Shown here: one piece after another, positions 17,683 through 40,544 of the stretch
How positions within the stretch are numbered: the first letter of the stretch is position 1
How the letters are laid out: each line of letters begins with the position of its first letter
Assembly (NCBI GenBank): GCA_963731795.1
Contig: CAVSWU010000003.1
Location: 1,222,216 to 1,286,215 of the forward strand
DNA length: 64,000 bases
Source of the DNA: an uncultured delta proteobacterium
GTDB taxonomy: Bacteria; Myxococcota; Myxococcia; Myxococcales; Myxococcaceae
Reading direction: 5' to 3'
The notes under the pieces: model-generated
Databases searched by the model: none
What the model was told of the DNA's origin: nothing
The model's input: only the letters and a program-made list of their open reading frames with translations
Made by a program: the position numbers and the translations under genes

Positions 17683-17755
17683 GTCCCCGTCGTCTAGAGG
17701 CCCAGGACGCTGGCCTTTCAAGCCGGTAACACGGGTTCGAATCCCGTCGGGGACA
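17683..17755 (+). tRNA. tRNA-Glu (anticodon TTC); its 3' 42 bp is the attachment site of the downstream island
   Basis: Acceptor GTCCCCG/CGGGGAC, anticodon loop CTTTCAA, T-arm ACGGGTTCGAATCCCGT. Confidence 0.85.
17714..17755 (+). repeat. attL: 42-bp direct repeat (3' end of tRNA-Glu)
   Basis: CCTTTCAAGCCGGTAACACGGGTTCGAATCCCGTCGGGGACA, identical to 35168-35209. Confidence 0.85.
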
Positions 17756-19966: not shown

Positions 19967-20004
19967 GGGAGCCGGCGGCAGACGGTCACGGTCAGAGAGG
20001 GGGG

Positions 20005-23963: not shown

Positions 23964-23976
23964 CTCTCGCCTGTTA

Positions 23977-24891
23977 CTACAGCCGAACCTCGGGAACGGA
24001 CAGACAGCGGCTCCCGTCTGCGTTGCACACCCGTAGCGCGTGCAGCGCGCTCAACCATTCTCCCGGCTCCCTCGCGGGCATCTCCACCTCCACGGCCACG
24101 CTCACCGCGCCCCCTGGGGGGATGGTTGCTTGCCCAGAGAGCACCGCGCGAGCGCGGCGCGGCTCCCCTCCCGCTGCGGGTGTCACCTCGGCCCACGCGG
24201 GCGCCCATGGTTCCGCTCCGGTGTTGCTCACTTCGAGCACCACCACGCTCCACGTTGACGCCCCGAGTCCTCTGCACTCTACGGGGCGAAGTTCGCCGCG
24301 CACGGCCTCGCACGCCTCCCGGAAATCCTGAGCCGTCATCCCCTTGTCGTCCACCAGCCCCGCGAGCGCTACCGCTGCCGGGCTCACCGCTGGAGGCCGT
24401 GCCTTCAATTCCTCCAGTTCCTTGGCTTGTGCCTCGCACCGCTCGCGCGTGGCGGCCAGTTCCACGCGGCACGCCTCCACCGTCTGCGGCGGGCGGCTCA
24501 CGTTGACCACGGTATCCGCCTTGCCCGGCTCCCCTGTGAGCAGGAACACAACGCTAGAGGGGAACCCCTCGCGGTAGGAGAACCGGAGCGCCAGCCGTTC
24601 GCCGGGCCCGAGCGCCACGGACGGCGCGAGCGTGACGCCTGCATCACCCACCTCGAACACAGGGAAGCGGGCGCGGCCCTCCACCTGGACAGACTCCCGC
24701 AGGATCGGAGCGCCCAGCAGGATCACCGTAACGGTGCCAAGTGCCACGTAGATCACCGGAGACTCGCCAGCCTTCCCTGTGAGCACAACGGAGCGCCCAG
24801 CAGGCGCGGCCTGTGCCGTAGCGGCAAGGCCCACCAGCAGGGAGGCGAGCGCGAAAGGCGGGACGAAGGGTCGGAGCTGAATGGAGGGACC
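23977..24891 (-). CDS. secreted hypothetical protein, kinase-associated (TIGR02268-like Myxococcus paralogous family?)
   Basis: Signal-peptide-like LASLLVGLAATAQA begins the convincing part. It lies immediately upstream of the kinase on the same strand. No ATG/GTG start was found near the GGAGGT RBS. Confidence 0.4.
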   Translation of the reverse strand, partial: GPSIQLRPFVPPFALASLLVGLAATAQAAPAGRSVVLTGKAGESPVIYVALGTVTVILLGAPILRESVQVEGRARFPVFEVGDAGVTLAPSVALGPGERLALRFSYREGFPSSVVFLLTGEPGKADTVVNVSRPPQTVEACRVELAATRERCEAQAKELEELKARPPAVSPAAVALAGLVDDKGMTAQDFREACEAVRGELRPVECRGLGASTWSVVVLEVSNTGAEPWAPAWAEVTPAAGGEPRRARAVLSGQATIPPGGAVSVAVEVEMPAREPGEWLSALHALRVCNADGSRCLSVPEVRL

Positions 24892-25261
24892 TCCCAGGTA
24901 GGCCCACAGCCTAGCAGGTGATCGAGGGCGCCCGCGTCGAAGTGTGCCCCTGCCGGTTCTCGCAGCCGTTCCAGTGGGCGCCGCCCTGCCTCGACGCGGG
25001 AGCGCCCTACGGGCCGGGGCTCCCCCCGTCCGACACGCGAGCGCTCCACGGGCCCAGCGGGGGCGAGCCCCGCCGCGCGAGCGCTCCACCGGGCCGAGCT
25101 GGACGCGGCGACGATGGCCGCCGTCCTGGCGCGCGCCACTGGCCAGCGCTGGCGCTGTCGGACGCGCGCTCCTCCATCGGCTCTCGCTGTTGGGGCGTGC
25201 TGATATGCTCCAGCGGAGAACCGGAGCCTTGACCCGCAGCACCTCGCTTGATTGAAAGGAC

Positions 25262-26185
25262 GTGGCCATGCGTGCGCGAACTTGCAGCGCCCCCCTGATC
25301 CTGTTCCTGCTCTCAGCCTGCGCCACGATGGATCCGAGCCCGGGAGCGCTGGAGGACCCGAGTCCCCCGAGTCCGAGATTCGCCAACCTCCAGCGGGCGG
25401 CGCTGTACCCCTGGACGGATGATGGGCAGTGCGTCGTGCGAGAAGCATCCAACGAATGGCCTATCCTTGCGGAGCGGTGCTTTCACGCGCTCGATCGCGA
25501 CAGGGTTAGATTTCAGGATGTCACCAAACGATGCGCCGTTGCCTACGCGGATGCCGCCGCTCCCGCAGTCGTGGCCCTCTGTGTCTTTGCGGCACCCGAG
25601 ATCGTCGTCGGTGCAGTGATTGTTGTTGGCGCGGTGGTGGTTGCAGCCGCCATCCAAGAGGGGATTGATGCTTACCAACGGAACGCATCCCGCGAGCGTG
25701 CGAAGCCCAAGACTCAAACGCAACCGGCTAAGGAACCGTTAGCGAACCGAGCGCCTAAGCCAAAGGGGTCGAGCACCGGAGACATCTTCCCACCACCGCC
25801 AGAAACCAAGCCGCGCAGTCCGTCGTGCGAGCCCATCCCGGTACGACACGCGGGCGAAGATGTCCCGCATAATGAGTGCGCCGATAAGTTTCCGCCCAAC
25901 CGTTATCCCGGCATGGACGTATTCGTGGGCGGTGAGCGCTTCGATGCGCTGCAAGTCGGCGTGCGTGTGCTGTGGGAAATCAAGACCCATCAATTCGACA
26001 CGTACAATGACTTTATCCAAGACCGCGAGATTGAGAAAGAAATCGAGCAGTTGGATAAAGAACGAAGAGCTGCGGTGGCGTGCGGATATGATTTTGTCAT
26101 TGGGGTGAGCACCCAAGCGCACAAAGCCGCGCTGCTGCGACGGGATCAGACCCTCCATATCGTCGTCACGGGGTGCAAGCGATGA
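25262..26185 (+). CDS. lipoprotein, putative polymorphic toxin with C-terminal PD-(D/E)xK-like nuclease motif (copy 1)
   Basis: Lipobox LLSAC, an internal hydrophobic segment and an Ala/Pro/Lys linker. The C-terminal PGMDVFVGG...LWEIKTH resembles PD...ExK. It is a paralog of 39642-40544. Confidence 0.55.
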   Translation: MAMRARTCSAPLILFLLSACATMDPSPGALEDPSPPSPRFANLQRAALYPWTDDGQCVVREASNEWPILAERCFHALDRDRVRFQDVTKRCAVAYADAAAPAVVALCVFAAPEIVVGAVIVVGAVVVAAAIQEGIDAYQRNASRERAKPKTQTQPAKEPLANRAPKPKGSSTGDIFPPPPETKPRSPSCEPIPVRHAGEDVPHNECADKFPPNRYPGMDVFVGGERFDALQVGVRVLWEIKTHQFDTYNDFIQDREIEKEIEQLDKERRAAVACGYDFVIGVSTQAHKAALLRRDQTLHIVVTGCKR

Positions 26186-26940
26186 CTAAGCGAAAAAGAC
26201 TCGGCATCATCGTCTACGCGCCTGCGCTCGTGGGCAACGAACGCCGCGTGCTCGATAGCGTCCATGGAATGGAAAAGGCGCTCCCCGGCCTGCGCCTGGA
26301 GTGGCGTCTCTCCAAAGGCGGGCGCCCCATCGCATTGCCGCAGCGCGACGCGTGGCTCGTAGAAAAGATTGAGGACGGGGGCTTCCCTCTTGTGTGCAAC
26401 GGGGACGCGAGTTACGCCGTGACGGTCTGGGGAAGGGAAAGATCAGGACTCTTCAGCTCTGGCGGTCAAGCCCAGTTTGAGGTGCATGCAAGACTGCCTC
26501 TGGACGAGCCCGTGATCGCGTCAGCGGCAGCTGTGCTTGAGGGCGTGGCGGAGGGGGCGGGTGCGCTGTGGGGGCGTGCGACGCCAGAGGACGCTGAGCT
26601 GGACATCGCGTATCAGACAGCGCCCACGCAGGAAGGGCCGCCGTCCCCACGCCGGGGGCTGCCCGCCCTGAAGCTCTTCGAGCACATCCGCTCGCCCGAG
26701 ATTCCCTATTACCTCGGATGGCTGAACTACTGGTCTGCCGCTGCCGCGAAAGAGATCGGGTTCCCGGACCCGGCCCGCGACACCGAGCTGCTCACTCGGG
26801 CGCGGCGCACTCCGTCGGGCGGGTGGGTCGTGCAGCTCACCGATGCGCCGCTCGATCTCGACAACCCCGCCCACCTGGACGCACTCAAGCGGACCTACGA
26901 GCGCTTCCCGGAGATTGGCGGGCGCGACTCTCCACGCTGA
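26182..26940 (+). CDS. putative cognate immunity protein (copy 1)
   Basis: ATGA start/stop overlap with the upstream toxin-like gene. About 85% aa identical to 38890-39645, which follows the second toxin copy. Confidence 0.5.
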   Translation: MTKRKRLGIIVYAPALVGNERRVLDSVHGMEKALPGLRLEWRLSKGGRPIALPQRDAWLVEKIEDGGFPLVCNGDASYAVTVWGRERSGLFSSGGQAQFEVHARLPLDEPVIASAAAVLEGVAEGAGALWGRATPEDAELDIAYQTAPTQEGPPSPRRGLPALKLFEHIRSPEIPYYLGWLNYWSAAAAKEIGFPDPARDTELLTRARRTPSGGWVVQLTDAPLDLDNPAHLDALKRTYERFPEIGGRDSPR

Positions 26941-27135
26941 AGGAGGCTGCTGCGCGTCTCCTAGCACACTCCACCGGGGCCGAGCTGGCGCTATCTGACG
27001 CGCGCGAGCGCTCCACGGGGCCAGCAGGCACGCATCGACGCGCGAGCTCTGCCATATGCGCCCCAGATCCGCCAGGAACCACGCGGGCGCCGGGGCTGAT
27101 TCGCGGGGGGCAGAACACGCCAAAATCACCCCGGT

Positions 27136-27699
27136 TCAAACCTGACCGGCGGCCAGGTCCTCGAGCGACTCGCGGATCAGGTCCTCGAACTTCGCGATCT
27201 GCGCCGTCGTCAGCTCTGGCATCGCCTGCTTGGCTCGCGACGGGACACCCAAGAGCTTCGTCCGGCACTTCCTGAAGACGTCTTCCAGCTCAGCGCGGAC
27301 GCCGGCCGCCGGCACGACTTCGCCGGCCGCCTTCAGATATTCCAGCTTCGCCGTCTTCGCCTGCCAGACCGCTTTGATCGCGTTGGCCTCCGACAAGGAC
27401 ATCCCCTCATACGGCTCGGGAACCTCGCCAGAGAGGGAGGGCGCGGCGCCTGACGACGCCCGTTGTCGGTTGTCGGGGGGCGTGTCACCTACTGAGCCAG
27501 CCGCGACCACGGACGCGGGCGCCTTGCTCAAGTCCGTGTTGGCCACCCATTCGCGGTCAGCCCGGTCAGGGTCGATCATGCCGTTCGGCTCCAGGTGAAT
27601 ACGGCCCTTCGCCAGTGCGCGCTGCACGGCCTGAAGGGAGCCCCCGGGGAGGCCCCTGTCCTTCCGATGCTCAGCGTATTTGCGCCGCGACAGCCCCAT
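27136..27699 (-). CDS. phage-type DNA-binding protein (terminase small subunit-like N-terminus)
   Basis: N-terminal MGLSRRKYAEHRKDRGLPGGSLQAVQRALAKGRI resembles the HTH of phage terminase small subunits; the C-terminus is helical. Confidence 0.4.
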   Translation of the reverse strand: MGLSRRKYAEHRKDRGLPGGSLQAVQRALAKGRIHLEPNGMIDPDRADREWVANTDLSKAPASVVAAGSVGDTPPDNRQRASSGAAPSLSGEVPEPYEGMSLSEANAIKAVWQAKTAKLEYLKAAGEVVPAAGVRAELEDVFRKCRTKLLGVPSRAKQAMPELTTAQIAKFEDLIRESLEDLAAGQV

Positions 27700-27941
27700 G
27701 TGACTCCCTTCCTAATCAGTGTACTGACAACACCTACACGCCGGGTTCACTGCCGCAGGACTGCGGATCTACGCTCCCGCAGCGGGTGGGACGCCGGAAG
27801 GACCCAAGCCTATGGGGGGGTGGAACCGTCACGGCTCGACGGCCTCGATCCGGCCACCTGCGAGGAAGGGGCGACGCTCATTTATCTGACCCCTTCCCGA
27901 TGGTGTGTTCTTCCGGGCCCTTCCCATTTCGCTTCCCACCC

Positions 27942-29144
27942 TTAGGGTGTGGGAAGCGCGGAAGGGGTGCTTCCGGCGCTTCCCGGGAAGCGTGGGAAGG
28001 GATGTGCCACCGTTGCCCGATCTTCATGATCATCCCCTCCAGTCTCCAGCTCCTTGCACGCTTGCAGCACGGCTTGAGTCCGGCGACTCAGACGGAGAGC
28101 TAACCCCGAGCCGCTGTCCGGTTTCTCCGCGAGCGCAGCCTGGATGTCCGCGCCGAGTTCCTCGGCTGCGGGCGCGGCCTTGGCCCTGACCTCGCGGCTG
28201 TACGTCCAGAGCGCCCACGTGGCCTCGCCGTTAGCGTCGTCCCTGATGTTCAAGGTGAGCTCGAACAGTCCCGCCGCACGCCCTGTCTTGGTCTCCACGA
28301 GCACAGAATCGGTCAAGGTGCTCTCCGTATGGGCCTTGAGCGCCATGTAGAAACCGCCGTCCACCGCGCCGTGGATGGCGGAGCTTCCGCGCATCATCTG
28401 GCCCGCGCGCCGTGAGGACTTGTCGGGGCTGCTCTTCGCGCTGTGGTGGACGAACAGCACAGTGCAATCCAAGAGGTCGCGGATCGCACGAAGCTGGGCC
28501 ATCACGTGCGCCATGGCGCCGCTGTCGTTCTCCTCGGCGCCGTGGATATCGCGCAGCGGGTCCAGCGCAACCAGCTTGGGCGCGCGCGGGAGCATCCGCA
28601 CAGCGGCGATGACGGCACACACGTCTGCGTCGTCCTGCAGGTCGATGTGCCCCCGGCACTGGATGTGGATGCGCCCTGTGGCCTTCTGAGGATCGAGCCC
28701 CTTGCCCACCGCGAGCGCCGCAAGCCGCGTGCGCATGGACTGTTCGCTGTCCTCGGCCATGAATAGGGCCACCTCTCCGGCCTCGCTCACCTGGAACTCG
28801 CCGAACGCCGGGACCGCATTTGCAACCGCCAGCGCTATCTCGATCTCCGCCCAAGTCTTGGCGGCCTTGGGTTCGGCTGAGATGGAGAAGACGCTCTTTT
28901 CCGGGATGATCCCGCTGATGGTCCACTGCATCGGTTTCGCAGGGCGCGAGAGGATGTCAGCGGCGCACTCGAACAGGACCTTGCGCTGGCCGCCAACGCT
29001 CCGGCCACGGTGCTGATCAAGCTCCAACCAAGCCCGGTGGAGCTGCCATTCGTAGGTCCCCGGCGCGGCGTCGGGGTCCGTGACGAAGTTGCTGCGGGCC
29101 TCTTTCACGGCGATGAGTTCCGCAACGCCCTCCGGCAGGCTCAA
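27942..29144 (-). CDS. RecA-like / AAA_25 family ATPase (RepA/primase-associated helicase-like)
   Basis: Walker A-like GIIPEKSVFSISAEPKAAKT and a Walker B-like acidic patch. TTG start. A TGA at 29211-29213 closes the upstream prim-pol frame, and no ATG/GTG lies between that stop and the ATPase's TTG start. Confidence 0.6.
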   Translation of the reverse strand: MSLPEGVAELIAVKEARSNFVTDPDAAPGTYEWQLHRAWLELDQHRGRSVGGQRKVLFECAADILSRPAKPMQWTISGIIPEKSVFSISAEPKAAKTWAEIEIALAVANAVPAFGEFQVSEAGEVALFMAEDSEQSMRTRLAALAVGKGLDPQKATGRIHIQCRGHIDLQDDADVCAVIAAVRMLPRAPKLVALDPLRDIHGAEENDSGAMAHVMAQLRAIRDLLDCTVLFVHHSAKSSPDKSSRRAGQMMRGSSAIHGAVDGGFYMALKAHTESTLTDSVLVETKTGRAAGLFELTLNIRDDANGEATWALWTYSREVRAKAAPAAEELGADIQAALAEKPDSGSGLALRLSRRTQAVLQACKELETGGDDHEDRATVAHPFPRFPGSAGSTPSALPTP

Positions 29145-29254
29145 GACCGGCTCCGGCGCAGTTTTCTCGCCTCGCGCCCGCCTATGCTGGATGCGATCTT
29201 GTCCACCTGCTCACTCGAAAGCGGCGGCTTGCACCGCGCCTCGTTGGTGACGTG

Positions 29255-29262
29255 GAGCAACT
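29255..29262. repeat. IS66 target-site duplication, left copy (GAGCAACT)
   Basis: Identical 8-mer at 31734-31741, directly abutting the imperfect terminal inverted repeats. Confidence 0.75.
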
Positions 29263-29340
29263 GTATCTGTTCGCCGTGCCCCGTCGTGACGAGGAGGCCG
29301 CCGCCGTGACACCACCAGGGCTCCACATGAGGAGGAGTCC

Positions 29341-29760
29341 ATGGAGAAGGAGTTGGAGCAGTTCCGGCAGGAGGTAGAGCGACTGAGGGCCGGGCGGCAG
29401 AAAGGCTCGTTGCCCTACCCGGAGACGCTGAGAGCGTTTGCGGTGCGCTACGTGGAGCATGCCCTGGAGGCGGGCGGGACGTTTGAGGCAGCAGCGACGG
29501 CGCTGGGGGTGTCGAAGCCGACGCTGCAAGCGTGGAGGAAGGGCAAGCCTGCGGCGCATCGTCGAGCCAAGGCGGGAGCAGAGGGGCGTGGGCTGGTGCC
29601 GGTGGTGGTGTCCGAGCCAAGGAAGCCGGGACGGCCGGCGATGGCGCAACCAGCCGTGGGGCAGGCAGGGCCCTTGACGGTGGTGGCCCCCGGGGGCTTT
29701 CGGGTGGAGGGGTTGAGCCTGGAGGGCGCAGCGCAGTTGCTGCGGAAACTGGGATGCTGA
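29341..29760 (+). CDS. tnpA: IS66 TnpA (orf1)
   Basis: 139 aa, first ORF of the IS66 unit with a helix-turn-helix region. Confidence 0.7.
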   Translation: MEKELEQFRQEVERLRAGRQKGSLPYPETLRAFAVRYVEHALEAGGTFEAAATALGVSKPTLQAWRKGKPAAHRRAKAGAEGRGLVPVVVSEPRKPGRPAMAQPAVGQAGPLTVVAPGGFRVEGLSLEGAAQLLRKLGC

Positions 29761-30134
29761 CGCTCACCCGAGCGGTGCGAGTGTTTGCCTATGCGGCGGC
29801 AGTGGACATGCGCAAGGGGTTCGATGGGCTGGGGGCCCTGGTGGAGCAGCAGCTGGGCGGGCAGTTGCTCAAGGGGGATGTGTTCCTGTTTGTGGGCCGA
29901 AGCCGCCGCCGCGCCAAGGTGCTGTACTTCGATGGGACGGGGCTGGTGTTGTTGACCAAGCGCTTGTTCCAAGGACGCTTCGCGCGGCCCTGGCCCGAGA
30001 AGGGCGCTGCCTCGGTGGAGTTGACGGTGGCCGAGCTGTCGCTGTTCCTGGAGGGCTGCGAGCTGGCGGGCCGCTGGAGGCTGTCGCCGCCTGCCTTCGA
30101 GGAAAAAACCCTTGCGGTAGGCTCTGCGTCCTAG
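29754..30134 (+). CDS. tnpB: IS66 TnpB (Orf2)
   Basis: VDMRKGFDGLGALV...GDVFLFVGRSRRRAKVLYFDGTGLVLLTKRL is the IS66 Orf2 signature. The ATG overlaps the tnpA stop. Confidence 0.8.
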   Translation: MLTLTRAVRVFAYAAAVDMRKGFDGLGALVEQQLGGQLLKGDVFLFVGRSRRRAKVLYFDGTGLVLLTKRLFQGRFARPWPEKGAASVELTVAELSLFLEGCELAGRWRLSPPAFEEKTLAVGSAS

Positions 30135-30149
30135 CACCTCTCAGGTAGG

Positions 30150-31667
30150 ATGGTGAAACTGGAGCAGGTGACAGACTTGGAGACGGCCAGGCAGGTGATA
30201 CGGCTGCTGGAGGCGGAGAATGAAAGGCTGCATCAGCGACTGCAGCACCTGGTGGCGGAGCTGGCCCGGCTCAAGGGGCAGGACGCCTCGGCGCAGTTGC
30301 AGCGCGAGCTGACAAAGCTCCAAGAGCAGCTGGCCTTACTCCAGCAGCGCCAGTTTGGCCCCTCCAGCGAGAAGCGCCCGCTGGCCTCACCGGTGGAGCG
30401 GCCACAGCGCACCCAGCCGCCTCAGGGCCACGGTCCCCGCGCCCAGCCAGAGCTGCCCGTACAAGAGGTGCTGCTGCCGTTGGATGAGGCCGACCAGGTG
30501 TGTGCCCTGTGCGGCGCTACGCTGCATGAGTGGGACGGGCAGACGGAGGACAGCGAAGAAATCACCGTCGTGGAGCGCCAGTTCGTGCTGCGCAAGGTGC
30601 GGCGCCAGAAGTACCGCTGCCCCCAGGGCTGTGCGCCGGTGACGGCGCCTGCACCCCCGCGCCTGGTAGAGGGCGGCCGCTACTCGGTGGAGTTCGCGGT
30701 GCACGTAGCCTTGCAGAAGTACGCCTACCACCTGCCGCTGGCCCGCCAGGAGCGCATGTTCCGGCGTGAGGGCCTGGTAGTCGAGCGCCAGACGCTCTGG
30801 GATCAGCTGGAGGCATTGGCCGACCACCTGCGCCCCAGCTACGAGGCGCTGCCCTCGGAGGCTTTCACCTCGCCGCTCATTCACGCCGATGAGACGCACT
30901 GGTACCTGTTGGACAAGGGGCCGGCCAAGAAGTGGTACGCGTGGACGGTGGCCTCGCCCGACACGGTGTACCACCGAATCCTGCCCAGCCGCTCGGGAGC
31001 CACGGCCAAAACCGTGCTTGGAGACTACGCGGGCGTCGTCGTGGTGGATGGGTATGCGGCCTACCAGACGGCGACGAAGTCCGGCGCGGACGGGCCCGCC
31101 CCTGCCACGCTGGCCTTCTGTTGGGCGCACGTGCGGCGCAAGTTCGTGGAGGCGCTCAAGTTCGAGCCGGCCTGCCAGCAGGTGGTGGAGCTCATCGGCC
31201 AGCTGTACGCCATCGAGGAGGACCTGCCTGACTGGCACGCGTTGGAAGGACAGGCGCAACAGGACGCGCTGGCCCATCGGCTCACCGTGCGACAGCAGCA
31301 GTCGGCCCCCCTCGTCGAGCGCATCAAGGCGTGGGCGCTTTCTCAGAAGGCGCTGCCCGACAGCACCTTTCGCAAGGCCCTCGAGTACATGCTGGAGCTG
31401 TGGAACGGGCTGACGCTCTTCCTGCACAACCCCCGGGTGCCGTTGGATAACAACCACGTCGAGCGACAACTGCGAGACATGGTGCTGGGCCGCAAGAACC
31501 ACTACGGCAGCAAGTCCCAGCGAGGCACCGAGGTGGCTGCTCTCTTCTACTCGCTCATCGAGACGGCCAAACTGCGTGGTGAGGATCCGGGCGACTACCT
31601 GCTGCGCGCAGCCCTCGCCGCCATCGAGAAGCCGGGCACCGTCACACTTCCCTCAGGCGTCGACTGA
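30150..31667 (+). CDS. tnpC: IS66-family transposase TnpC
   Basis: 505 aa with a leucine zipper, a CxxC zinc finger, DETHWYLL, and HYGSKSQRG...LIETAKLRGEDP. Confidence 0.9.
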   Translation: MVKLEQVTDLETARQVIRLLEAENERLHQRLQHLVAELARLKGQDASAQLQRELTKLQEQLALLQQRQFGPSSEKRPLASPVERPQRTQPPQGHGPRAQPELPVQEVLLPLDEADQVCALCGATLHEWDGQTEDSEEITVVERQFVLRKVRRQKYRCPQGCAPVTAPAPPRLVEGGRYSVEFAVHVALQKYAYHLPLARQERMFRREGLVVERQTLWDQLEALADHLRPSYEALPSEAFTSPLIHADETHWYLLDKGPAKKWYAWTVASPDTVYHRILPSRSGATAKTVLGDYAGVVVVDGYAAYQTATKSGADGPAPATLAFCWAHVRRKFVEALKFEPACQQVVELIGQLYAIEEDLPDWHALEGQAQQDALAHRLTVRQQQSAPLVERIKAWALSQKALPDSTFRKALEYMLELWNGLTLFLHNPRVPLDNNHVERQLRDMVLGRKNHYGSKSQRGTEVAALFYSLIETAKLRGEDPGDYLLRAALAAIEKPGTVTLPSGVD

Positions 31668-31733
31668 CAGCTGCTCGCCCTGCGAGCAGCCCTGTGTGAT
31701 CCCAGGGCCCCACGGGGTACGGCGAACTGATAC

Positions 31734-31741
31734 GAGCAACT
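31734..31741. repeat. IS66 target-site duplication, right copy (GAGCAACT)
   Basis: See 29255-29262. Confidence 0.75.
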
Positions 31742-32490
31742 GGTACGCGAGCATAGGGTCCAGTTTCCGGAAGAGCACCCCGGCGATTTCGGTCATCCCC
31801 ACGTCGCGCCGGCCCTCGCCGAGGTTCGCCAGGAGCGCGGCCCACTCGCCGCCAGATCGCCGCAGCGGCTTCACAGCGGGCGCGGCCGGTTCGGAATCGG
31901 GAATCTGGACACCCCGCCAGCGCTTCGTCCACGTCGAGCGGAGGGCCGTCCTGGGCCAGCACGGGAGCCACAGGTAGTCCGGCCGGGATGGACCGGGCGA
32001 ACCACAGGCGCGCGCAGTCCGCCGCGTCCGGGTCCGCTGGGATGGCGAACCGATTGACGAGCACGGATCGGAGGGGCCCCCACTCGCGCGGCTGCACTTC
32101 CCGGGAGGGCCGCACCACCAGCCGCACAGAGCGCCGGGCGGAGCGATCCGAGTGCGTAGGGACGATCGCGCTCGCGATCCTGGCCGCCTCGAGACGCCGC
32201 ATGCATGCGACGAGCACCGGCCTCTCGACGCAGTCCACGTCGAACACGAGGACCTGGAGCCCGACGACGTCCTCGTTCCGGCGCCGGCCCCCGGTCCTGA
32301 AGCGTGCGCCAGACCAGCCGGGGCCGAGTCGCGACGGGCATCCATGTCCGATGCAGGAGGTGCCGCAGTCCGCGAACCGGGGGCGGCCGATCCGGCGGAC
32401 GAACGCATCCCAGGTCAGGCGTGCAGGCTTCGGGATCGTGTCGTTCACCGCGCTGAAGAACGCGACCTCGATGAACTCGTTTGTCTGAGT
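31742..32490 (-). CDS. primase-polymerase (prim-pol/AEP-like) domain protein; its last ~15 codons are displaced by the IS66 insertion
   Basis: MATQTNEF...VVGLQVLVFDVDCVERP is a DxD acidic motif. Removing the IS and one TSD rejoins the frame, which then runs to a TGA at 29211-29213. Confidence 0.45.
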
Positions 32491-32498
32491 CGCCATGT

Positions 32499-32849
32499 TC
32501 ACGCTGGCTCCGTGCTCTGGACTCGGGAATTGGAGCGGGCGGGCGGACGGGGCCGCCGCTTCTTCCACTCCGAGCGTTGCCGTTCGGCCAGCTCGGCCAG
32601 CTCCGCTTTGAACGACTTGGGCGCGCGGCGCTTCGCCGTGGGCCGCTGCTCGGGCTGCCGCGTGTGGCACTCCGCCGCGAGCGCGGCAGCGACGGACTCT
32701 GCGGTGATCACGGTCTTTCGGCCGTACTTCGGCCCCCGGACAAGCGTGTTGTCGGCGAGCAGTTCGAACACCCGGCGCCGCTTGCAATGGAGCTCGGCGG
32801 CTGCCTCATCGACGGTCAGCAGCGCGCTCACGGCTGCCCCCGGTCGCAC
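32499..32849 (-). CDS. excisionase/AlpA-like helix-turn-helix DNA-binding protein
   Basis: LLTVDEAAAELHCKRRRVFELLADNTLV is an HTH_17/Xis-like motif. Confidence 0.5.
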   Translation of the reverse strand: MRPGAAVSALLTVDEAAAELHCKRRRVFELLADNTLVRGPKYGRKTVITAESVAAALAAECHTRQPEQRPTAKRRAPKSFKAELAELAERQRSEWKKRRPRPPARSNSRVQSTEPA

Positions 32850-33034
32850 TCGGGAATCGGCTGGCGAGCACGCTCAAGGAGCAGTCGCTCCACAAGATCC
32901 GGGTCGAAAAGGAACCGGTCGCCCGCACGAACACACGGCAGGCGCCCCGCTGCGGCCTCAGCCCGCAGCCATACGACGGAGACGCGCAACCTGCGCGCCA
33001 TCGCAGAATCGGGAATGGGTTTCGGCGTCGTCAT
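32828..33034 (-). CDS. excisionase/AlpA-like helix-turn-helix DNA-binding protein
   Basis: MARRLRVSVVWLRAEAAAGRLPCVRAGDRFLFDPDLVERLL is an Xis/AlpA-type HTH; 68 aa. Confidence 0.5.
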   Translation of the reverse strand: MTTPKPIPDSAMARRLRVSVVWLRAEAAAGRLPCVRAGDRFLFDPDLVERLLLERARQPIPECDRGQP

Positions 33035-33093
33035 TGGCCCAATTTTCGGGCCGACTTCGGACGCGTCGGATCAAGTTGGGATCTAGTTCGGAT

Positions 33094-33825
33094 CTACTTG
33101 GGCTCGTTCGCAAGCCTCGTTCCACGCGAGGTGACAGCGTACCCTTTCTTCGGCCCGCCTGGACGGTGAACGAGGCCGGCCTCAGAGAGTTCAGCCAGCG
33201 CCTTGCCCACCGTGCCGCGTGAGAACCCGTCCGGGTTGTTCTCCTCGATATCTCTCTGGCCCTGCCGGGCTCCGCCTACGCACGTAGCAAGGTACTTCAG
33301 GATCTTGAATGCGTTCTTGCTCAACTGTGGAGCGCCCTCAACCTCGTCGGCCCTTTCGGGTGGTGGGACTTCCTTCACAAGCGCGAGGTCGCTCTCAGCT
33401 TCTGCAGCGAGTTGCTCAATGACCCGCCGTACTTCGACCACGTCCTGCGGAGGCGCCCACTCCCAGACCGCCGGCAGCCCTAGAACGTGGGACTCGCGCG
33501 CAAGGGGCAGGAAGTCGCGCAGCCATTGCCTGAAGTGAGGGAAGTCCTCGATGGATTCCTTTCCACTGCGGACGCGCTCCTCTATCGCGATGAGGCCGGG
33601 AAGTGAGCGCCTTGCGTTCTGCCGAAGGCAATAGAGGCGCTCTTGAAGCGACGTCCCGGTTGGCCTGCTCGCATAGAGCCACGGCACGTCCTTCGAAATA
33701 TACGAGCCGTCATCGAGGGAAGCCGCGCCTGCTTTGACTGCGGCGGCTAGCTTCTGCGCCAGTACCTCTCGGCGTTTGCCTTCGACCCATGCTTTATGCT
33801 CAGCCTTCTTGCGGTCGATGCTCAC
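33094..33825 (-). CDS. hypothetical protein with C-terminal winged-helix DNA-binding domain
   Basis: C-terminal FKILKYLATC...GTVGKALAELSEAGLVHRPGG is a wHTH. It lies between the integrase and the Xis genes. Confidence 0.4.
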   Translation of the reverse strand: MSIDRKKAEHKAWVEGKRREVLAQKLAAAVKAGAASLDDGSYISKDVPWLYASRPTGTSLQERLYCLRQNARRSLPGLIAIEERVRSGKESIEDFPHFRQWLRDFLPLARESHVLGLPAVWEWAPPQDVVEVRRVIEQLAAEAESDLALVKEVPPPERADEVEGAPQLSKNAFKILKYLATCVGGARQGQRDIEENNPDGFSRGTVGKALAELSEAGLVHRPGGPKKGYAVTSRGTRLANEPK

Positions 33826-35087
33826 TTGTCACCCCTCGTCCGCGCCGGGAACTTCGGATCGTCCATGTGGGCGAGGCACAGTGGAAGCGCAATCATGGGG
33901 GGCACTTCGTTCCCCTCGTAGAAGACTTTCGTCGTACGCGCGCTCGTGTGGCCCATGACCGCCGCGACTTCGTCGAGCGGCACGCCGCCGTCGCTCGGAC
34001 GAACAAGCTTCCCCATGCCGCGCGCCCAGGTGGCGAAGCTGTGCCGAAGTTCGGAGGGCCGGATAATGGGAGGTCGCGCCGTGCATTCGTCAGCCTTCGC
34101 GAAGTCTGCGCCGCAGGTGCAGGCATCCCCCGCTAGCCGCCTATGCGCGCGCTTGAGCATGAGCAGCGCCGGGGCACGCGTCAGAGGAGAACCACGGGCC
34201 GCGAGCCGTCTTGCCGCTGCGAGGCCGGCAGCGTCGAGGCTCACGACGTGGATCTTCCCGGCCTTCAGGTGGCGGAAGGTGATGGTGCCCGCGATGCCGC
34301 AGGGGTCGTTCACCTCGCGGATCTCGGCGTCGCCGTCCGCAACCCTGGCGATCTCGGTATCGTGCATACCAGTGGTCGCGCGCAGGCGGATCACGTCGCG
34401 CAGGGCCTGGCTCGTCAGCGCCGCATACGTGTGCTCGACGTCCGCAATGGCGTATCCCTTCGCACGCACGCTCTTCTCTGCTCGCGGCTGCGGCACGGGA
34501 AGATCGAGCGTAGGATCGTCCTTCCGCTCGAGCTTGCCCGTCTTCCGCGCCCACGCGGTGAACGCCCGGAGGGCAACGATCCGCTTGTGGCGTGCCCTCC
34601 TCCAGTTCCCCAGAATGGCGTTCAGATCTCCGAGCGTGACCTTGCACAGTTCCTTCCCGCCCAGTGCTTCGGCCCATGCCTTGAGGTACGGCTGTAGGGT
34701 GTGCCGGACGTAGCCCTCGGAGAGTTCCCCCTGTTCCACCTTGGCGCGCGCGTCCGAGGAGAACTCCGCGAGCGTCGCCGCGTCGAGTCGCAGGCCGGCG
34801 GGCGCGCGAGCCTGCTCCTGGTTCTGCTGCTTCCTCGTCCGGTACGCGAGCGGGTCACGGTCGAATAGGGCGAGTTCAGCGAGCGCCTCCCGTTCGGTAC
34901 GCACGCCGAGAGCGATCTTGTAGCGCCTGCCTCCGGCCCACTTCTCGATCACGAAGACCTCGCGCCCCCGCGCGAGCCGGACGAGTCCGCCGTCCCAGCG
35001 ACGAAGCGAGCGTTGCGAGGGGTACTGAGGTGGCTCCGCAGGGGGCGCCGTGGGCGCATCAGAGGAAGCCAGTTGGACGGTGGGCAT
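33822..35087 (-). CDS. int: tyrosine-type site-specific integrase
   Basis: C-terminal catalytic region SELRHSFATWA...GHTSARTTKVFYEG (R..H..R..Y). Adjacent to attR. Confidence 0.9.
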   Translation of the reverse strand: MPTVQLASSDAPTAPPAEPPQYPSQRSLRRWDGGLVRLARGREVFVIEKWAGGRRYKIALGVRTEREALAELALFDRDPLAYRTRKQQNQEQARAPAGLRLDAATLAEFSSDARAKVEQGELSEGYVRHTLQPYLKAWAEALGGKELCKVTLGDLNAILGNWRRARHKRIVALRAFTAWARKTGKLERKDDPTLDLPVPQPRAEKSVRAKGYAIADVEHTYAALTSQALRDVIRLRATTGMHDTEIARVADGDAEIREVNDPCGIAGTITFRHLKAGKIHVVSLDAAGLAAARRLAARGSPLTRAPALLMLKRAHRRLAGDACTCGADFAKADECTARPPIIRPSELRHSFATWARGMGKLVRPSDGGVPLDEVAAVMGHTSARTTKVFYEGNEVPPMIALPLCLAHMDDPKFPARTRGDK

Positions 35088-35167
35088 GGGCGCCTCTCAA
35101 GAGGAACGGCGCCAAGTCGGCGCCAAGTGCCACCATACACCGCCCGTCTCCCTCTGGGAAACACTCC

Positions 35168-35209
35168 CCTTTCAAGCCGGTAACACGGGTTCGAATCCCG
35201 TCGGGGACA
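35168..35209 (+). repeat. attR: 42-bp direct repeat of tRNA-Glu 3' end
   Basis: Identical to 17714-17755. Confidence 0.85.
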
Positions 35210-35238
35210 CTGAATCGGGGCCGGAAGCTGCTGAACAC

Positions 35239-35577
35239 TCAGCGGTTTCCGGCCCCGGTGCTTTCTGGGTCCTTCTCGTCTCCAGAATGTCTCCACGCCG
35301 AGGAGTCGCCCCGCCCCTCCTCCAGCATCTGGATGGCGCGGTGCTTCTCCCCCTTCCCCAGGTGCATGTACCGCATCGTGGTGCGGAGGCTGCGGTGGCC
35401 TGCCAGTTCCTTGATCGATAGCGGTGGGACGCCTCGCATGGCGAGGTGGCTACAGAACGTGTGGCGGAGAATGTGGAGCGCCCCTGTCACCTTGAGCCCG
35501 GCCCGCTTCTGCGCTGCGGACATCCAGCTCCGCACCGTCTGCTGGGACACTGGCGTCCCATCCTCGCGGTAGAGCAC
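35239..35577 (-). pseudogene. tyrosine integrase 3' fragment (remnant of an older element)
   Basis: Only the C-terminal catalytic ~110 aa are present (ILRHTFCSHLAMRG...GHRSLRTTMRYMHL). No N-terminal domains. It lies right after attR. Confidence 0.7.
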
Positions 35578-35603
35578 CCGCTCGCCCCGCAGGTGGCGGG
35601 CAC

Positions 35604-35888
35604 GTGCGAGAGCCGAGGATGGCCCGGATGGTGAAGGGGGCCCTCGCTGTGAAGTTGGCTGAGGAGAAAGCCGTCCTTAGGTCGCTGCGTAAACGGCTCG
35701 CCGCCGAGGTGCTGCTGCTGGAGGACCCGGACCTCCGGAAGCTGGAGCGGCACCGGCGGCTGCTGGAGAACTCCATGCAGCGCCAGCTCGATCTACTCGG
35801 ACAGGTGCGCTCCCAGGTGGCCTCCGCTCGGCCCGAGCACCAAGCCGAGGCCAAGGAGCTGCGCGTGAAACTCCGGCTGATGGGGTGA
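35604..35888 (+). CDS. small coiled-coil hypothetical protein, translationally coupled to the next gene
   Basis: 94 aa, charged and helical. Its stop overlaps the GTG start of 35885 (GTGA). Confidence 0.35.
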   Translation: MREPRMARMVKGALAVKLAEEKAVLRSLRKRLAAEVLLLEDPDLRKLERHRRLLENSMQRQLDLLGQVRSQVASARPEHQAEAKELRVKLRLMG

Positions 35889-36685
35889 TTCACGTTGCGG
35901 CTTGCCATGAGGAATTTGGCTCTTATGTTGCGAGTACCATGGCATCTGCGCGCCCCGTCAGGATCCCGAAGAATCCCTCCGTTCTGGTGCTGGAACTCAA
36001 CACGGAGCAGCTCTCCCGGGAAAATCTCTCGCTCGCTAAACAGGTAGAGGCGGAAGTCCAGCGGCTCGGCCTGACCGTGCAGGTTGTCCAGACGACGACC
36101 CAGGATGAGCTGGGAGGGGCATTGACGAGGCTCGCAGAAGCGCGGCGCACCTTCCACGTTGTCGTGGTTATCGCGCATAGCAATGAGGAGGGTATCCAGA
36201 TCGCCTGTGACCCGATGAATCAGGGAGACGGGTTCGTTTCCTGGAGAGCGTTCACCTCGTATCTCAACCTCTTCAGTACTCAGCGGTTGTTACTAGTGGC
36301 CTGTGAGGCAGGGCGCTCGACACCGGCCCGTGCGCTTTTCGAGGGGCTGCCCCGGCTGAGCCGCGCCTATGCCAGCCCCGTTCCCATGACCAAGGCGCAA
36401 GCGAAGCTGGTGCTTGACGCGGTTCCGGTTCTCCTCGGGGTGAACCCGCCGTCAAGCGAGGATCTGCGGTGGCAGCAGTTCTTGCTGGGCGTGCGCGCGG
36501 GCGGACAGCTCTTCGAGTGGACTCCGAAGGATATGGAACAGCCCGAGAGCGATGGCTTCCTCGACTGGTGTGCGGATGCGGCCAAAGGCCCCCTGGCGAG
36601 TTTGCCGGTGGCCTTCAACAAGAACGAGTCCCTGCGAGAGCTGACTGGACTGGTTGAGACGGTCCGCGACCTCTTCCGGAAGTAA
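35885..36685 (+). CDS. caspase-like (CHAT/C14-like His-Cys dyad) hypothetical protein, lower GC
   Basis: His98 (in HVVVVIAHSN, after a β-strand-like segment) and Cys140 (in LLLVACEAGRS) are 42 aa apart, as in caspase/CHAT catalytic dyads. GC is ~58%, below the ~70% background. Confidence 0.35.
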   Translation: MIHVAACHEEFGSYVASTMASARPVRIPKNPSVLVLELNTEQLSRENLSLAKQVEAEVQRLGLTVQVVQTTTQDELGGALTRLAEARRTFHVVVVIAHSNEEGIQIACDPMNQGDGFVSWRAFTSYLNLFSTQRLLLVACEAGRSTPARALFEGLPRLSRAYASPVPMTKAQAKLVLDAVPVLLGVNPPSSEDLRWQQFLLGVRAGGQLFEWTPKDMEQPESDGFLDWCADAAKGPLASLPVAFNKNESLRELTGLVETVRDLFRK

Positions 36686-37036
36686 ATTCCGCAATTGGTC
36701 CGGTTCGGGTTCGTTCTGACGGCCCTTCCTGAGCTTTTGGACTCCTCGCCTATTATTGGTAGGGCTATCGGATCCGGACAAGGCCTCCCACCCCCAGGGG
36801 GACAGGGGTTCCCTTGCCGCAGGTTCATTTTTCAGGGTCTCTTGCAGGATCCGTGGGTCTCGAACCCCGGACTGAGGAATCCACGGCGGGAGACGGTGGA
36901 GGGGCCTCGCCCCGCCCCGACAGGAGGTGCTCCGAGGGAAACGAGCAGCGCCTGAGGTTGGCAGGCGGGTTGCAGAGCCCCTCGGCCGCGACGTTGGCGG
37001 AAGCGGAGCTGCCAGGCGGGCTGGAGGAGACAGGCG

Positions 37037-37570
37037 GTGGGCTGGGTGGGCGTGGGCGAGCTGCTGCGGCGGCTGCTCGGGGTGAAGGGGCTGGTGGTGC
37101 GCGGAGCGCGCCTGGAGGAGCGGGAGTGGTGGTGGCGGTGCGCCCTCGCCAACGTCGCCTGCGGTGCGGGGTGTGCGGGCGGCCCGGCCCGCACTACGAC
37201 ACGAGCCAGGAGCGCGTGTGGCGGCACCTGTCGCTGGGGCGCACGGTGTTCTGGCTGAGCTATGCGCCGCGCCGCACCCTGTGCCGTGAGCACGGGGCGA
37301 GAGTGGAGAGAGTGCCCTGGGCCGCGCATGACTCGGACTTCACCTTCGAGTTCGAGGAGATGACGGCGTGGCTGGCGCAGCAGCTGAGCAAGACAGCCAC
37401 GAAGAAGCTGATGGGAATCAACTGGCGCACGGTGGACGCCATCATCGAGCGCGTGGTGAAGGCGCGATTGGACCCGGAGCGGCTGGAGGACTTGTACGTC
37501 ATCGGCGTGGACGAGCTGTCCTTCCGCCGCCACCACGAGTACGTGACGGTGGTGGTGGACCACCAAGGGT
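37037..37570 (+). pseudogene. ISL3-family transposase remnant (frameshifted, 3'-truncated)
   Basis: The N-terminal ISL3 zinc-finger/HTH region (RRLRCGVCGRP...WRHLSLGRTVFWL...VPWAAHDSDFTFEFEEMTAWLAQQ...INWRTVD) is split over two frames. It stops after ~180 aa without the DDE core. Confidence 0.6.
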
Positions 37571-37691
37571 GGCTGGCAGCTCACGCAGCCTGCCCCGTCC
37601 GAGGCCCCGCCCAGCGGTCACGACGGGCCGCGGTGAGGCAAAGACCCGCGAACGGGGCCACTGGCGAGAGTCGGTGGCCCCGTCCGCGTTC

Positions 37692-38537
37692 CTACTCCTT
37701 CGACTCTGCGTAGAGTACGAACCCGTCAACGGGCAGTGGTGCGTGGGGGATTAGCGTCTGCACCATGAAGAGGTTGTCGCAGTGCTCGGCGTTCGGACCG
37801 CCGAAAACAGTCTTGAAGGCCGGTTCCACACACCAATCCGGATCAAGGAATAGGCCGGTGTCGCCTGCCTCCGCGAACTTGCGGATGACGTGTGCGGGAT
37901 GAAATGTCCACACGTCATAGTGGCCGGGCCGACCTTCCGTGGGGTCAACCTCGGCGCCAATATCGCGGAGCCACCGCGCCAGCTCGGGGTCCTCCGTCTG
38001 AAGGTTCCCCTTGGAGGAATCCATCACTTTCACCCGTGCCTTTGGCATGGTTGCCTCGGCCCATGCAGCCACGTCCGAGGGATCGATGATGCGAAAGCGC
38101 GGCTCTACGCGATCCATCGGCGGGTCTCCGTTCCAGTATTCTCTCGGCTCGTGCGACACGTACCCTGAAAGCTCCACGCGCCCACTCGCGTCCGCCTCCA
38201 TCAATAATCCTGAGCTGCTGTCGTGGATGTTGTACTGGAAAGCAGGGGCGCCCACCCGTTCGGCGAGGCGTGCGAGAAGCGGCGGGCTTCCCTGCATCAA
38301 CAATTCAAAGGGGGCGGTGCGGATGGCAGTCCATCCCGGGGCGCCACGGAAACCGGCGATCCCCCAACGGCGAACCTCGTCACCCTTTCCGTATTGCATG
38401 GGATCGCGATGGTCAGTCTTGCGCTGTCTCGAGGTCACGAGTCGCCGCCTCTTTTCCACCACCAGGCGGGCAAGTTCTCTCTCAACCCGGTCCACATCCC
38501 CACACTGAATAAAGGCCGCGTTCATCCAAGTTCCCAT
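37692..38537 (-). CDS. hypothetical protein
   Basis: 281-aa ORF with normal codon usage and no recognisable motif. Confidence 0.4.
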   Translation of the reverse strand: MGTWMNAAFIQCGDVDRVERELARLVVEKRRRLVTSRQRKTDHRDPMQYGKGDEVRRWGIAGFRGAPGWTAIRTAPFELLMQGSPPLLARLAERVGAPAFQYNIHDSSSGLLMEADASGRVELSGYVSHEPREYWNGDPPMDRVEPRFRIIDPSDVAAWAEATMPKARVKVMDSSKGNLQTEDPELARWLRDIGAEVDPTEGRPGHYDVWTFHPAHVIRKFAEAGDTGLFLDPDWCVEPAFKTVFGGPNAEHCDNLFMVQTLIPHAPLPVDGFVLYAESKE

Positions 38538-38889: not shown

Positions 38890-39645
38890 TCAGGGTGAGT
38901 CGCGCCCGCCGATCTGGGGGAAGCGTTCGTAGGCCCGCTTGAGCGCGTCCAGGTGGGCGGGGTTGTCGAGATCGAGCGGCGTATCCGTGAGCTGCACGAC
39001 CCATCCGCCCGACAGCGTGCGCCGCGCTCGCGTGAGCAGCTCGGCGTCGCGAGCAGGATCCGGGAACCCAATGGCCTGCGCGGCAGCGGCAGACCAGTAG
39101 TTCAGCCACCCAAGGTAATAGGGAATCTCTGGCGAGCGGATGTGCTTGAAGAGCTTCAGGGCGGGCAGCCCCCGGCGTGGAGACGGTGGCCCTTCCAGCG
39201 TGGGTGCTGTCTGATACGCGATGTCCAGCGCAGCACCATCCGGCGTCGCACGCCCCCAGAACGCGCGTGCGCCCTCCGCTACGCCCTCAAGCACAGCCGC
39301 CGCTGACGCGATCACGGGCTCGTCCAGTGGCAGTTCTGCATACACTTCAGACAGGGGCTGACCGCCTGGGCTGAGGAGTCCCGATTTTCCCCTCCCGTTA
39401 ACCGTCACGGGGTAACTCTCGTCCCCGTTGCACAGAAGAGGGAATCTCCCGTCCTGCGTCCTTTCCACGAGCCACGCATCGCGCTGCGGCAATGCGATGG
39501 GGCGCCCTCCTTTGCCTACTTCCCACTCCAGGCGCAGGCCGGGGAGCGCCTTTTCCATCCCATGGACGCTATCGATTGTGCGGCGGTCTTTGCCCGCAAG
39601 CGCAGGCGCGTAGACAACAACGACAAGTCTTTTTCGCGTAGTCAT
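38890..39645 (-). CDS. putative immunity protein (copy 2)
   Basis: Paralog of 26182-26940 (~85% aa identity). It follows the toxin-like gene with a 4-bp overlap. Confidence 0.5.
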   Translation of the reverse strand: MTTRKRLVVVVYAPALAGKDRRTIDSVHGMEKALPGLRLEWEVGKGGRPIALPQRDAWLVERTQDGRFPLLCNGDESYPVTVNGRGKSGLLSPGGQPLSEVYAELPLDEPVIASAAAVLEGVAEGARAFWGRATPDGAALDIAYQTAPTLEGPPSPRRGLPALKLFKHIRSPEIPYYLGWLNYWSAAAAQAIGFPDPARDAELLTRARRTLSGGWVVQLTDTPLDLDNPAHLDALKRAYERFPQIGGRDSP

Positions 39646-40544
39646 CGCTTACACCCTGTGACGACAACATTCAGGGACTGATCCGCTTGCAGCAGCGCTT
39701 CTTTGTGCGCTTGGGTGCTCACCCCAATGATGAAGTCATATCCACATGCCTCCGCAGCTCTTCGCTCCTTTTCAATTTGCTCCAACTCCTTCTCAATCTC
39801 CCGCCTCCGGATGAAGTCAGGATACGTGTCAAATCGATGGGTCTTGATCTCCCACAGCACGCGCACGCCGACTTGCAGCGCATCGAAGCGCTCACCGCCC
39901 ACGAATACATCCATGCCGGGATAACGGTTGGGCGGAAACTTATCGGCGCACTCGTTATGCGGGACATCTTCGCCCGCGTGCCGCACCGGGATGGGCTCGC
40001 ACGACGGACGGCGCGGCTTGGTTTCTGGCGGTGGGGGGAAGATGTCTCCGGTGCTCGACCCCTTTGGCTTAGGGGCTCGGTTCGCTAACGGTTCCTTTGC
40101 GGGCTGCGTTTGAGTCTTGGGCTTCGCGCGCTCGCGGGATGCGTTCCGTTGATAGGCATCGATCCCCTCTTGAATCGCGGCTGCCACCACCACCGCGCCA
40201 ACAACAATCACTGCACCGACGACGATCTCGGGGGCCGCAAAGACACAGAGGGCCACGACTGCGGGAGCGGCTGCATCCGCGTAGGCGACAGCGCATCTTT
40301 TGTTGACATCCCGGAACCTGACCCTGTCGCGGTCGAGCGCGTGAAAGCACCGCTCCGCCAGGATCGGCCATTCGTTAGAGGCTTCTCGCACCACGCACTG
40401 CCCGTCATCCGTCCAGGGGTACAGCGCCGCACGTTGAAGATTGGCGAGCCTCGGACTCGGGGCTTCCGGCTCTCCCGGGCTCGGATCCATCGTTGCGCAG
40501 GCTGAGAGCAGGAACAGGAGTGCGATGAACGTTCGGTGAGGCAT
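39642..40544 (-). CDS. lipoprotein, putative polymorphic toxin with PD-(D/E)xK-like C-terminal motif (copy 2)
   Basis: Paralog of 25262-26185. The central region is nearly identical at nucleotide level and the C-terminal ~70 aa diverge. Lipobox LLSAC. Confidence 0.55.
   Translation of the reverse strand: MPHRTFIALLFLLSACATMDPSPGEPEAPSPRLANLQRAALYPWTDDGQCVVREASNEWPILAERCFHALDRDRVRFRDVNKRCAVAYADAAAPAVVALCVFAAPEIVVGAVIVVGAVVVAAAIQEGIDAYQRNASRERAKPKTQTQPAKEPLANRAPKPKGSSTGDIFPPPPETKPRRPSCEPIPVRHAGEDVPHNECADKFPPNRYPGMDVFVGGERFDALQVGVRVLWEIKTHRFDTYPDFIRRREIEKELEQIEKERRAAEACGYDFIIGVSTQAHKEALLQADQSLNVVVTGCKR

Follow-up and report, generated by a model that had tools for sequence, protein, structure and literature searches.

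Caspase-like and CHAT proteases are coming into view in bacterial immunity both as executioners and as relays of signals, as in Craspase, in the relay from SAVED-CHAT to PCaspase, and in the activation of gasdermins. To our knowledge, all characterized immune proteases of this kind carry or bind a sensor. Here, we describe a family of bare CHAT-like proteins through one member, encoded in a 64,000-nucleotide stretch of DNA from an uncultured delta proteobacterium of the Myxococcaceae (assembly GCA_963731795.1, contig CAVSWU010000003.1, positions 1,222,216 to 1,286,215 of the forward strand; hereafter the window). The gene is intact (35939..36685, plus strand), encodes a stand-alone protein of 248 amino acids with a predicted caspase-hemoglobinase (clan CD) fold, and lies in the remnant of an element integrated at a tRNA-Glu gene. 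The best explanation of the whole locus, to which we assign a probability of about 0.6, is that it encodes a single-domain, cytoplasmic CHAT-like protease that serves as a component of a conflict system and is now housed in a decayed element.

The closest described relatives by fold and probable role are CHAT immune proteases, namely SAVED-CHAT from a type III-B CRISPR locus of Haliangium ochraceum (PDB 8tl0) and TPR-CHAT/Csx29 of Craspase. SAVED-CHAT activates PCaspase, and its H375 and C422 lie 3.8 Å apart in the structure; these residues are separated by 47 positions, compared with 42 in the putative dyad of the window protein. Unlike SAVED-CHAT and TPR-CHAT, the window protein consists of 248 residues and has neither a SAVED or TPR domain nor any other domain for sensing or scaffolding. 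It differs from CHAT proteases further in that the Pfam CHAT model (PF12770) gives no match at E ≤ 0.1, in its own motifs (GHSN, ACxAGR, IYASP, and TGG..W.R), in a distinct C-terminal helical extension, and in genomic contexts that, as far as seen, contain no CRISPR or CD-NTase genes. Prokaryotic caspases and orthocaspases (Peptidase_C14), which include PCaspase and gasdermin-activating proteases, are set apart by the lack of any Pfam or NCBIfam Peptidase_C14 match in the window protein. A third group, Tce1 and Tce2 (DUF4347; PDB 9qpe), comprises putative cysteine protease effectors that are delivered to other cells via a type VI secretion system (T6SS) (PMC13323088); in the family described here, no context shows an association with Hcp or a T6SS, DUF4347 matches remain below threshold, and nothing suggests export. 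The most fitting description of the window protein is a new type among CHAT/caspase proteases, minimal and stand-alone, present in none of the defense catalogs queried.

An initial annotation of the window had described the locus as a low-GC pair of translationally coupled genes, a 94-residue coiled-coil protein and a 266-residue caspase-like protein. Both open reading frames (ORFs) are present (35604–35888, 94 codons, and 35885–36685, 266 codons, each with a GTG start), and the GTG of the larger one does lie within the GTGA at the stop of the smaller one. The strings SVLVLELN, HVVVVIAHSN, and LLLVACEAGRS likewise occur in the 266-residue translation, with the noted spacing of 42 residues between His and Cys. 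As described below, the protease survives this analysis whereas the pair does not.

Results

A Predicted Clan CD Fold with an Invariant His/Cys Pair

Structure prediction with AlphaFold2 and a 100-sequence alignment yielded a model with a predicted local distance difference test score (pLDDT) of 90.4 and a predicted template modeling score of 0.87, compared with a pLDDT of 65.5 when only four sequences were supplied. The model shows an alpha/beta/alpha sandwich whose strands follow the order seen in caspases, built from strands at residues 14–19, 46–51, 74–78, 116–120, 142–145, and 192–194 and followed by a helical C-terminal extension. VVVIAH80 follows strand 74–78 and LLLVAC122 follows strand 116–120, which are the positions of the clan CD histidine and cysteine. 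In a fold search, the model scored highest against SAVED-CHAT (8tl0_A, 14.7), followed by C11 (12.4), Tce1/DUF4347 (11.9), gingipain (11.0), and caspases and metacaspases (~10.7), and then by legumain, Raptor, MALT1, GPI8, separase, DdvA-CHAT, and Craspase. The first match outside clan CD appeared at rank 38, and the four-sequence model produced the same ranking. Foldseek aligned the model to 8tl0 with an E value of 2.4e-7 and a TM score of 0.55. The model, the fold search, and Foldseek all point to the caspase-hemoglobinase fold that had been suspected from short motifs. Such a fold, closest to CHAT, is very probable, as is the anatomy of the remnant element described below.

The family was delineated by an exhaustive HMMER search over 1.84 billion cluster representatives, which recovered 275 clusters at E ≤ 1e-3 and 223 at E ≤ 1e-10, nearly all of them stand-alone proteins of 200–250 residues. 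A word-indexed search with the 266-residue ORF had found four homologs, and scans with one family alignment found four genome loci and three short metagenome loci. Members occur in myxobacteria, in one metagenome-assembled genome (MAG) from Verrucomicrobiota, and in many metagenomes. When 100 members with 21%–76% identity to the window protein were aligned, the only invariant columns were His80 and Cys122 (codons 36176–36178 and 36302–36304), the residues that the initial annotation had singled out as His98 and Cys140 in the numbering of the longer frame. The remaining consensus motifs read LLI(I/L)ECD, (V/I)GHSNxxG, W, PFxPxxLxLxACxAGR, LFxxxPxLxxIYASP, and TGGxxxxWxR. The residue that closes beta1 is Asp in 84% of the family and Asn in the window copy; the Asp would predict a preference for a basic P1 residue in most members. 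The family is undescribed, and its C-terminal helical extension is family-specific.

Sequence libraries gave no usable match to the window protein in Pfam, NCBIfam, PADLOC, or PHROGs, and the same was true of the 94-residue ORF. No protease emerged from sequence searches of the PDB, whether the query was the protein by itself, either of two profiles, or a divergent member, and neither a transmembrane segment nor a signal-like region was detected in the window protein. A C-X5-R phosphatase or a rhodanese, considered for the CEAGRS stretch, was rejected: Cys and Arg are spaced as C-X3-R here, and clan CD is what the fold search returns.

Two atypical members were encountered. In a proteobacterial MAG (L010, 7551–8889), a family member extends over two overlapping frames and is thus either a pseudogene with a frameshift or a product of misassembly. 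A 275-residue protein (L021, 763–1590) joins DUF1883, at residues 1–61, directly to a CHAT-like domain that lacks its first ~27 residues; it seems to have arisen when a deletion joined two neighboring genes.

The Upstream Reading Frame Is a Deletion Remnant

Intact relatives of the element were found on metagenomic contigs L001–L003. They carry a tyrosine integrase, an HTH_17 excisionase, and a 271-residue gene on one strand and, on the opposite strand, a 291-residue gene, a 313-residue gene, and a 248-residue protease gene whose product is 71% identical to the window protein. Residues 5–93 of the 94-residue ORF align to residues 224–312 of the 313-residue protein of L001 (62% identity, E 9e-33, BLASTP), and identity to the L011 ortholog of that protein reaches 80%. 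At the nucleotide level, two colinear blastn blocks relate the window to L001: 35183–35618 matches 2987–3423 at 91.5% identity, and 35619–36823 matches 7678–8879 at 73.7% identity. Compared with L001, the window has thus lost exactly 4,254 bp, with the junction at 35618|35619 as read off the aligned sequences. With this segment went the N-terminal part of the integrase, the excisionase, the 271- and 291-residue genes, and the first ~224 codons of the 313-residue gene.

The composition of the 94-residue ORF follows from this junction. Its GTG and first five codons, up to the junction (35604..35618, plus strand), are antisense to the integrase fragment, and the rest (35619..35888, plus strand) consists of the last 89 codons and the stop of the 313-residue gene, as indicated by BLASTP to L001 and L011 and by blastn colinearity from 35619. 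The ORF is a chimeric leftover of the deletion and not a functional partner, and because it is the remnant of a larger gene, the proposed pair is an artifact of the deletion. The overlap with the protease frame is missing in L001 and L011, and co-occurrence of the two genes does not extend through the family: the 313-residue family adjoins the protease in the closest relatives only and is absent beside all more distant members.

The C-terminal half of the remnant (35740–35885) is nearly identical in protein to L011. Synonymous divergence (dS) from L011 is 0.35 over the whole remnant, compared with 0.74 for the adjacent protease gene, and together these observations suggest mosaic recombination between element variants.

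The Start and Constraint of the Protease Gene

All homologs are called from an ATG equivalent to 35939, which lies 50 nt past the stop of the upstream remnant and 54 nt past the overlapping GTG. That GTG is specific to the window copy; the upstream gene stops in TAA in L001 and in TAG in L011, and neither has a GTG at the overlap position. The spacer before the ATG measures 50–53 nt, with indels of 4, 2, and 3 nt among the copies, not all of which are multiples of three. The 18-codon in-frame extension (35885..35938, plus strand) is most likely a noncoding spacer that lies outside the protease gene. A consensus scan identified a promoter-like box within it, TTGCCA-16 nt-TATGTT (35902..35929, plus strand), ending 9 nt before the ATG. 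Both hexamers are kept in L001 and L011 as TTGCCA-16-TA(T/C)GTT, so that the box is shared by three elements in all, and this conservation suggests that transcription of the protease gene may start from a promoter of its own, with a very short leader or none.

The larger frame is a real gene under constraint, as indicated by its codon-position GC content (0.67/0.44/0.76; GC at third positions, 0.76), by the homologous clusters, and by the ratio of nonsynonymous to synonymous substitution (dN/dS). This ratio is 0.27 between the window and L001, 0.20 between the window and L011, and 0.28 between L001 and L011, all pairwise values that are blind to recent relaxation. Base composition is less distinctive than had been thought: rather than ~58% GC against a background of ~70%, the two frames together have 63.2% GC (protease gene, 62.4%; 94-residue ORF, 67.7%) and the whole window 67.9%, and ~6% of equal-sized windows fall below the value of the two frames. 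Antisense ORFs at 35450–36178 and 36367–36828 were dismissed as genes by their codon-position GC.

A Remnant Element Next to a Younger Island

The target of integration is an intact tRNA-Glu(TTC) gene (17683..17755, plus strand; ARAGORN and repeat analysis). An exact 42-bp copy of its 3′ part, positions 17714–17755, recurs at 35168..35209 (plus strand) as an attachment (att) repeat, where no such repeat is expected by chance. This copy closes a 17.5-kb island on its right side and, at the same time, marks where the remnant element begins on its left. Since the repeat occurs in both places, the island lies between the tRNA gene and the locus, in a tandem arrangement of integrations at tRNA-Glu, and the gene served as the target of both the island and the older remnant. 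Scans for tRNAs and Rfam families across 35100–35270 returned the tRNA-Glu 3′ fragment only and no RNA family.

To the right of the repeat, a tyrosine integrase is represented by 112 C-terminal codons (35239..35577, minus strand; Pfam Phage_integrase, 5e-15, profile positions 98–169 only), and this fragment is 92% identical to residues 323–434 of the L001 integrase ORF. Colinearity with the intact element continues for 138 bp beyond the protease gene (36686..36823, plus strand) and stops where an ISL3-family transposase remnant starts (36814..37713, plus strand; HTH_Tnp_ISL3, 2.1e-7; Zn_ribbon_ISL3, 3e-5; the DDE profile is matched at positions 1–21 of 240 only). The flanks are thus as initially annotated, with Pfam matches on both sides. 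What remains of the older element is the att repeat, the integrase 3′ end, the 313-residue gene remnant, the intact protease gene, and the 138 bp; repeat analysis found no right-hand att repeat of this element in the window. In L001, the element spans ~8.6 kb between two copies of a 27-bp version of the att repeat, at ~2987 and ~11563, which enclose the integrase, the excisionase, and cargo. It is a tRNA-integrating element by its repeats and its integrase and excisionase genes, and the window retains the left repeat and the integrase 3′ fragment. The repeats and the blastn comparison with the intact element identify the protease gene as cargo of such an element, in agreement with the earlier view that it is foreign.

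Several features surrounding the protease gene were recorded in passing. A hairpin (35215–35258) with a 20-bp stem that includes 13 G-C pairs immediately follows the att repeat, where the integrase fragment has its 3′ end; it resembles a terminator, but its T-run is weak, and the same sequence start follows the att copy in L001. The 291-residue gene of L001 (6134–7009), first in the intact operon, overlaps the 313-residue gene by 4 bp, and its product shows an HNH-like motif by eye (VIHHQRGDKLD...SHARAHN) without a library match. The 17.5-kb island (17756–35209) has a 421-residue integrase (33822–35087) and carries two Ser/Thr kinases, DUF4236, DUF2381, DUF6310, AAA_25, an IS66 transposase, an HTH protein, and an HTH_17 excisionase; its DUF6310 gene occupies 25262–26185. 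A further DUF6310 gene (39642–40544) lies outside the island and overlaps a DUF5953 gene (38890–39645) by 4 bp, both on the minus strand; these families of no known function might, speculatively, form a toxin/immunity-like pair. The ISL3 remnant and the DUF5953 gene are separated by a 281-residue ORF (37692–38537, minus strand), which has no Pfam, NCBIfam, PADLOC, or PHROGs match.

Gene Neighborhoods of Homologs

Homologs lie among defense or mobile genes in nearly all contexts recovered, as the initial annotation had anticipated. Integrative elements at tRNA-Glu carry the gene in the window, in L001–L003, and in L011. Elsewhere, nearby genes encode an N6_N4 methyltransferase and PhdYeFM (L006), Mrr_cat (L007, Polyangium), a sacsin-like protein and a 1,889-residue STAND-kinase (L008, Sorangium), an AEP-like primase (contig P0154), XhoI with a methyltransferase and an AAA_12 helicase (L020), or IS66 (L022).

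Among more distant relatives, a recurrent cassette was found, in which a divergent HTH_3-Peptidase_M78 (HTH-M78) regulator faces genes for a 78-residue zinc-ribbon/glycine-zipper protein (CxxC...CPxC, with a glycine-zipper-like hydrophobic core) and an 88-residue DUF1883 protein. The cassette is found at L016 29–1824, L017 6152–7951, L018 3082–4913, and L021 514–950, with 60%–88% identity between loci; no earlier description of it was found. DUF1883 is listed among the domains of TIR-containing proteins in a review figure (PMC9153377). In L016 and L017, the arrangement is reminiscent of operons of the 6A-MBL and CapH/CapP type: relatives with 38% identity to the window protein sit between the cassette and the two genes of a 6A-MBL anti-phage system, which score 396.8 bits against NF058524 (cutoff, 220) and 656.9 bits against NF058523 (cutoff, 320). 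These two NCBIfam models describe the 6A-MBL components, neither matches the CHAT-like protein, and the window lacks both genes. Another effector accompanies this cassette and the protease in L018, L019, and L023, where a fusion of Peptidase_C14 to a HamB-like helicase precedes the CHAT-like gene. In L018 and L019, the cassette is flanked by QatB/TatD and a cNMP-TIR gene.

Discussion

An active protease with a His80/Cys122 dyad is probable; a role in defense or abortive infection is proposed more tentatively, at somewhat less than even odds. A simple model would start from a cytoplasmic, single-domain cysteine protease of 248 residues with a putative His80/Cys122 dyad and without a sensor domain. 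The internal deletion of 4,254 bp cut down a tRNA-Glu element of ~8.6 kb, an ISL3 element took its right side, and the 17.5-kb island was inserted later into the same tRNA-Glu. The protease is the only intact gene of the decayed element in the window. The lack of a sensor domain suggests that the protease would be controlled chiefly through its expression or by proteins encoded with it, by way of the gene's own promoter-like box here and, in relatives, of its position behind a divergent HTH-M78 (CapH/CapP-like) regulator. Once made, the protease would cut specific targets, which may be proteins of the host or of a phage, or a pro-enzyme encoded alongside it, the last by analogy with the way SAVED-CHAT activates PCaspase. 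A bolder version, which we regard as unlikely, casts the family as minimal, sensor-less "initiator" CHAT proteases in a plug-in cassette (HTH-M78, 78-residue zinc-ribbon membrane protein, DUF1883, and mini-CHAT) that would activate 6A-MBL or caspase-helicase effectors by processing. This would amount to a transcriptionally triggered protease cascade; the copy in the tRNA-Glu element would then represent a separate use of the same protease with other partners, the 291- and 313-residue proteins.

Several observations weigh against a CHAT-like protease in a conflict system. Only five of the 100 aligned members give even sub-threshold domain matches, to CHAT once (1.7e-5), to DUF4347 three times, and to Peptidase_C25 once, and the best DUF4347 match (E 0.0016) reaches 18.6 bits against a cutoff of 24.6. 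An hhalign comparison with the C14 domain of L018 is not significant (E 0.23), yet it aligns His80 with the His of GHG and Cys122 with the Cys of DCC. No known defense model recognizes the protein; in PADLOC-DB v2, only PtuB appeared, at a noise-level E of 0.034, and the operon proteins of L001 have no PADLOC match either. The neighborhood evidence comes from ~17 contexts and is qualitative, without background statistics. All-versus-all BLASTP of neighbors in 9 and then 17 loci found no universal neighbor or upstream partner, with the upstream proteins of L006, L007, L009, and L012 being mutually unrelated; because no neighbor is conserved family-wide, guilt by association remains qualitative. 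Collections of plasmids, phages, and viral contigs contained no family members, although this is neutral with regard to a defense role. Finally, since the operon partners have been deleted in the source genome, the gene there may be inert or decaying.

This last point leads to the alternative that fares best, namely that the gene is a functionless relic in its source genome, still whole by chance and due to decay now that its operon is lost. The surroundings are all truncated, from the integrase fragment and the 313-residue gene remnant to the ISL3 remnant, and the L010 relative is frameshifted. However, the ORF is full length, all family-conserved residues and the promoter-like box are retained, and the dN/dS of the window copy is no higher than that between the intact-element copies, even if such pairwise ratios cannot register recent relaxation; on balance, a relic appears unlikely. 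Alternatively, the protease might serve the element itself, cleaving a repressor or host factor for excision and transfer in an ImmA/ImmR-like manner, or act as an anti-defense factor that destroys host immune proteins. Its place in the cargo and regulatory arm opposite the integrase and excisionase genes in L001–L003 and L011, its own conserved promoter-like box, and the missing sensor domain would fit such a role. Distant members, in contrast, lie outside recognizable integrative elements, in defense-type operons under HTH-M78 with 6A-MBL or caspase-helicase genes, and no cognate repressor gene is conserved next door, which makes service to the element quite improbable.

An exported toxin, secreted or delivered by contact like the DUF4347 T6SS effectors or myxobacterial polymorphic toxins, is very unlikely for a protein that has neither a signal peptide nor a transmembrane segment, whose best structural match is CHAT and not C80/DUF4347, and whose ~17 contexts contain no Hcp, VgrG, PAAR, or immunity-like conserved neighbor. 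The coupled two-gene system can be set aside almost entirely: the GTGA overlap is real, the remnant does have a charged, helical character, and in the closest relatives the gene from which it derives stands immediately upstream of that for the protease, but the small frame joins 89 final codons of the 313-residue gene to five antisense-integrase codons and homologous proteases start 54 nt downstream of the GTG.

For the window, the lesson is that the apparent pair is a deletion artifact and the locus a decayed island remnant; the CHAT-like protease family is still a reasonable candidate for experiments. More generally, its members amount to a bare catalytic domain of ~220–250 residues with an invariant dyad and no database model, which recurs beside validated or candidate defense genes. 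If active, they would add a protease component to loci with 6A-MBL-type ubiquitin-like systems, and they would raise the questions of how a caspase-like protease without a sensor is held in check and which proteins it cuts.

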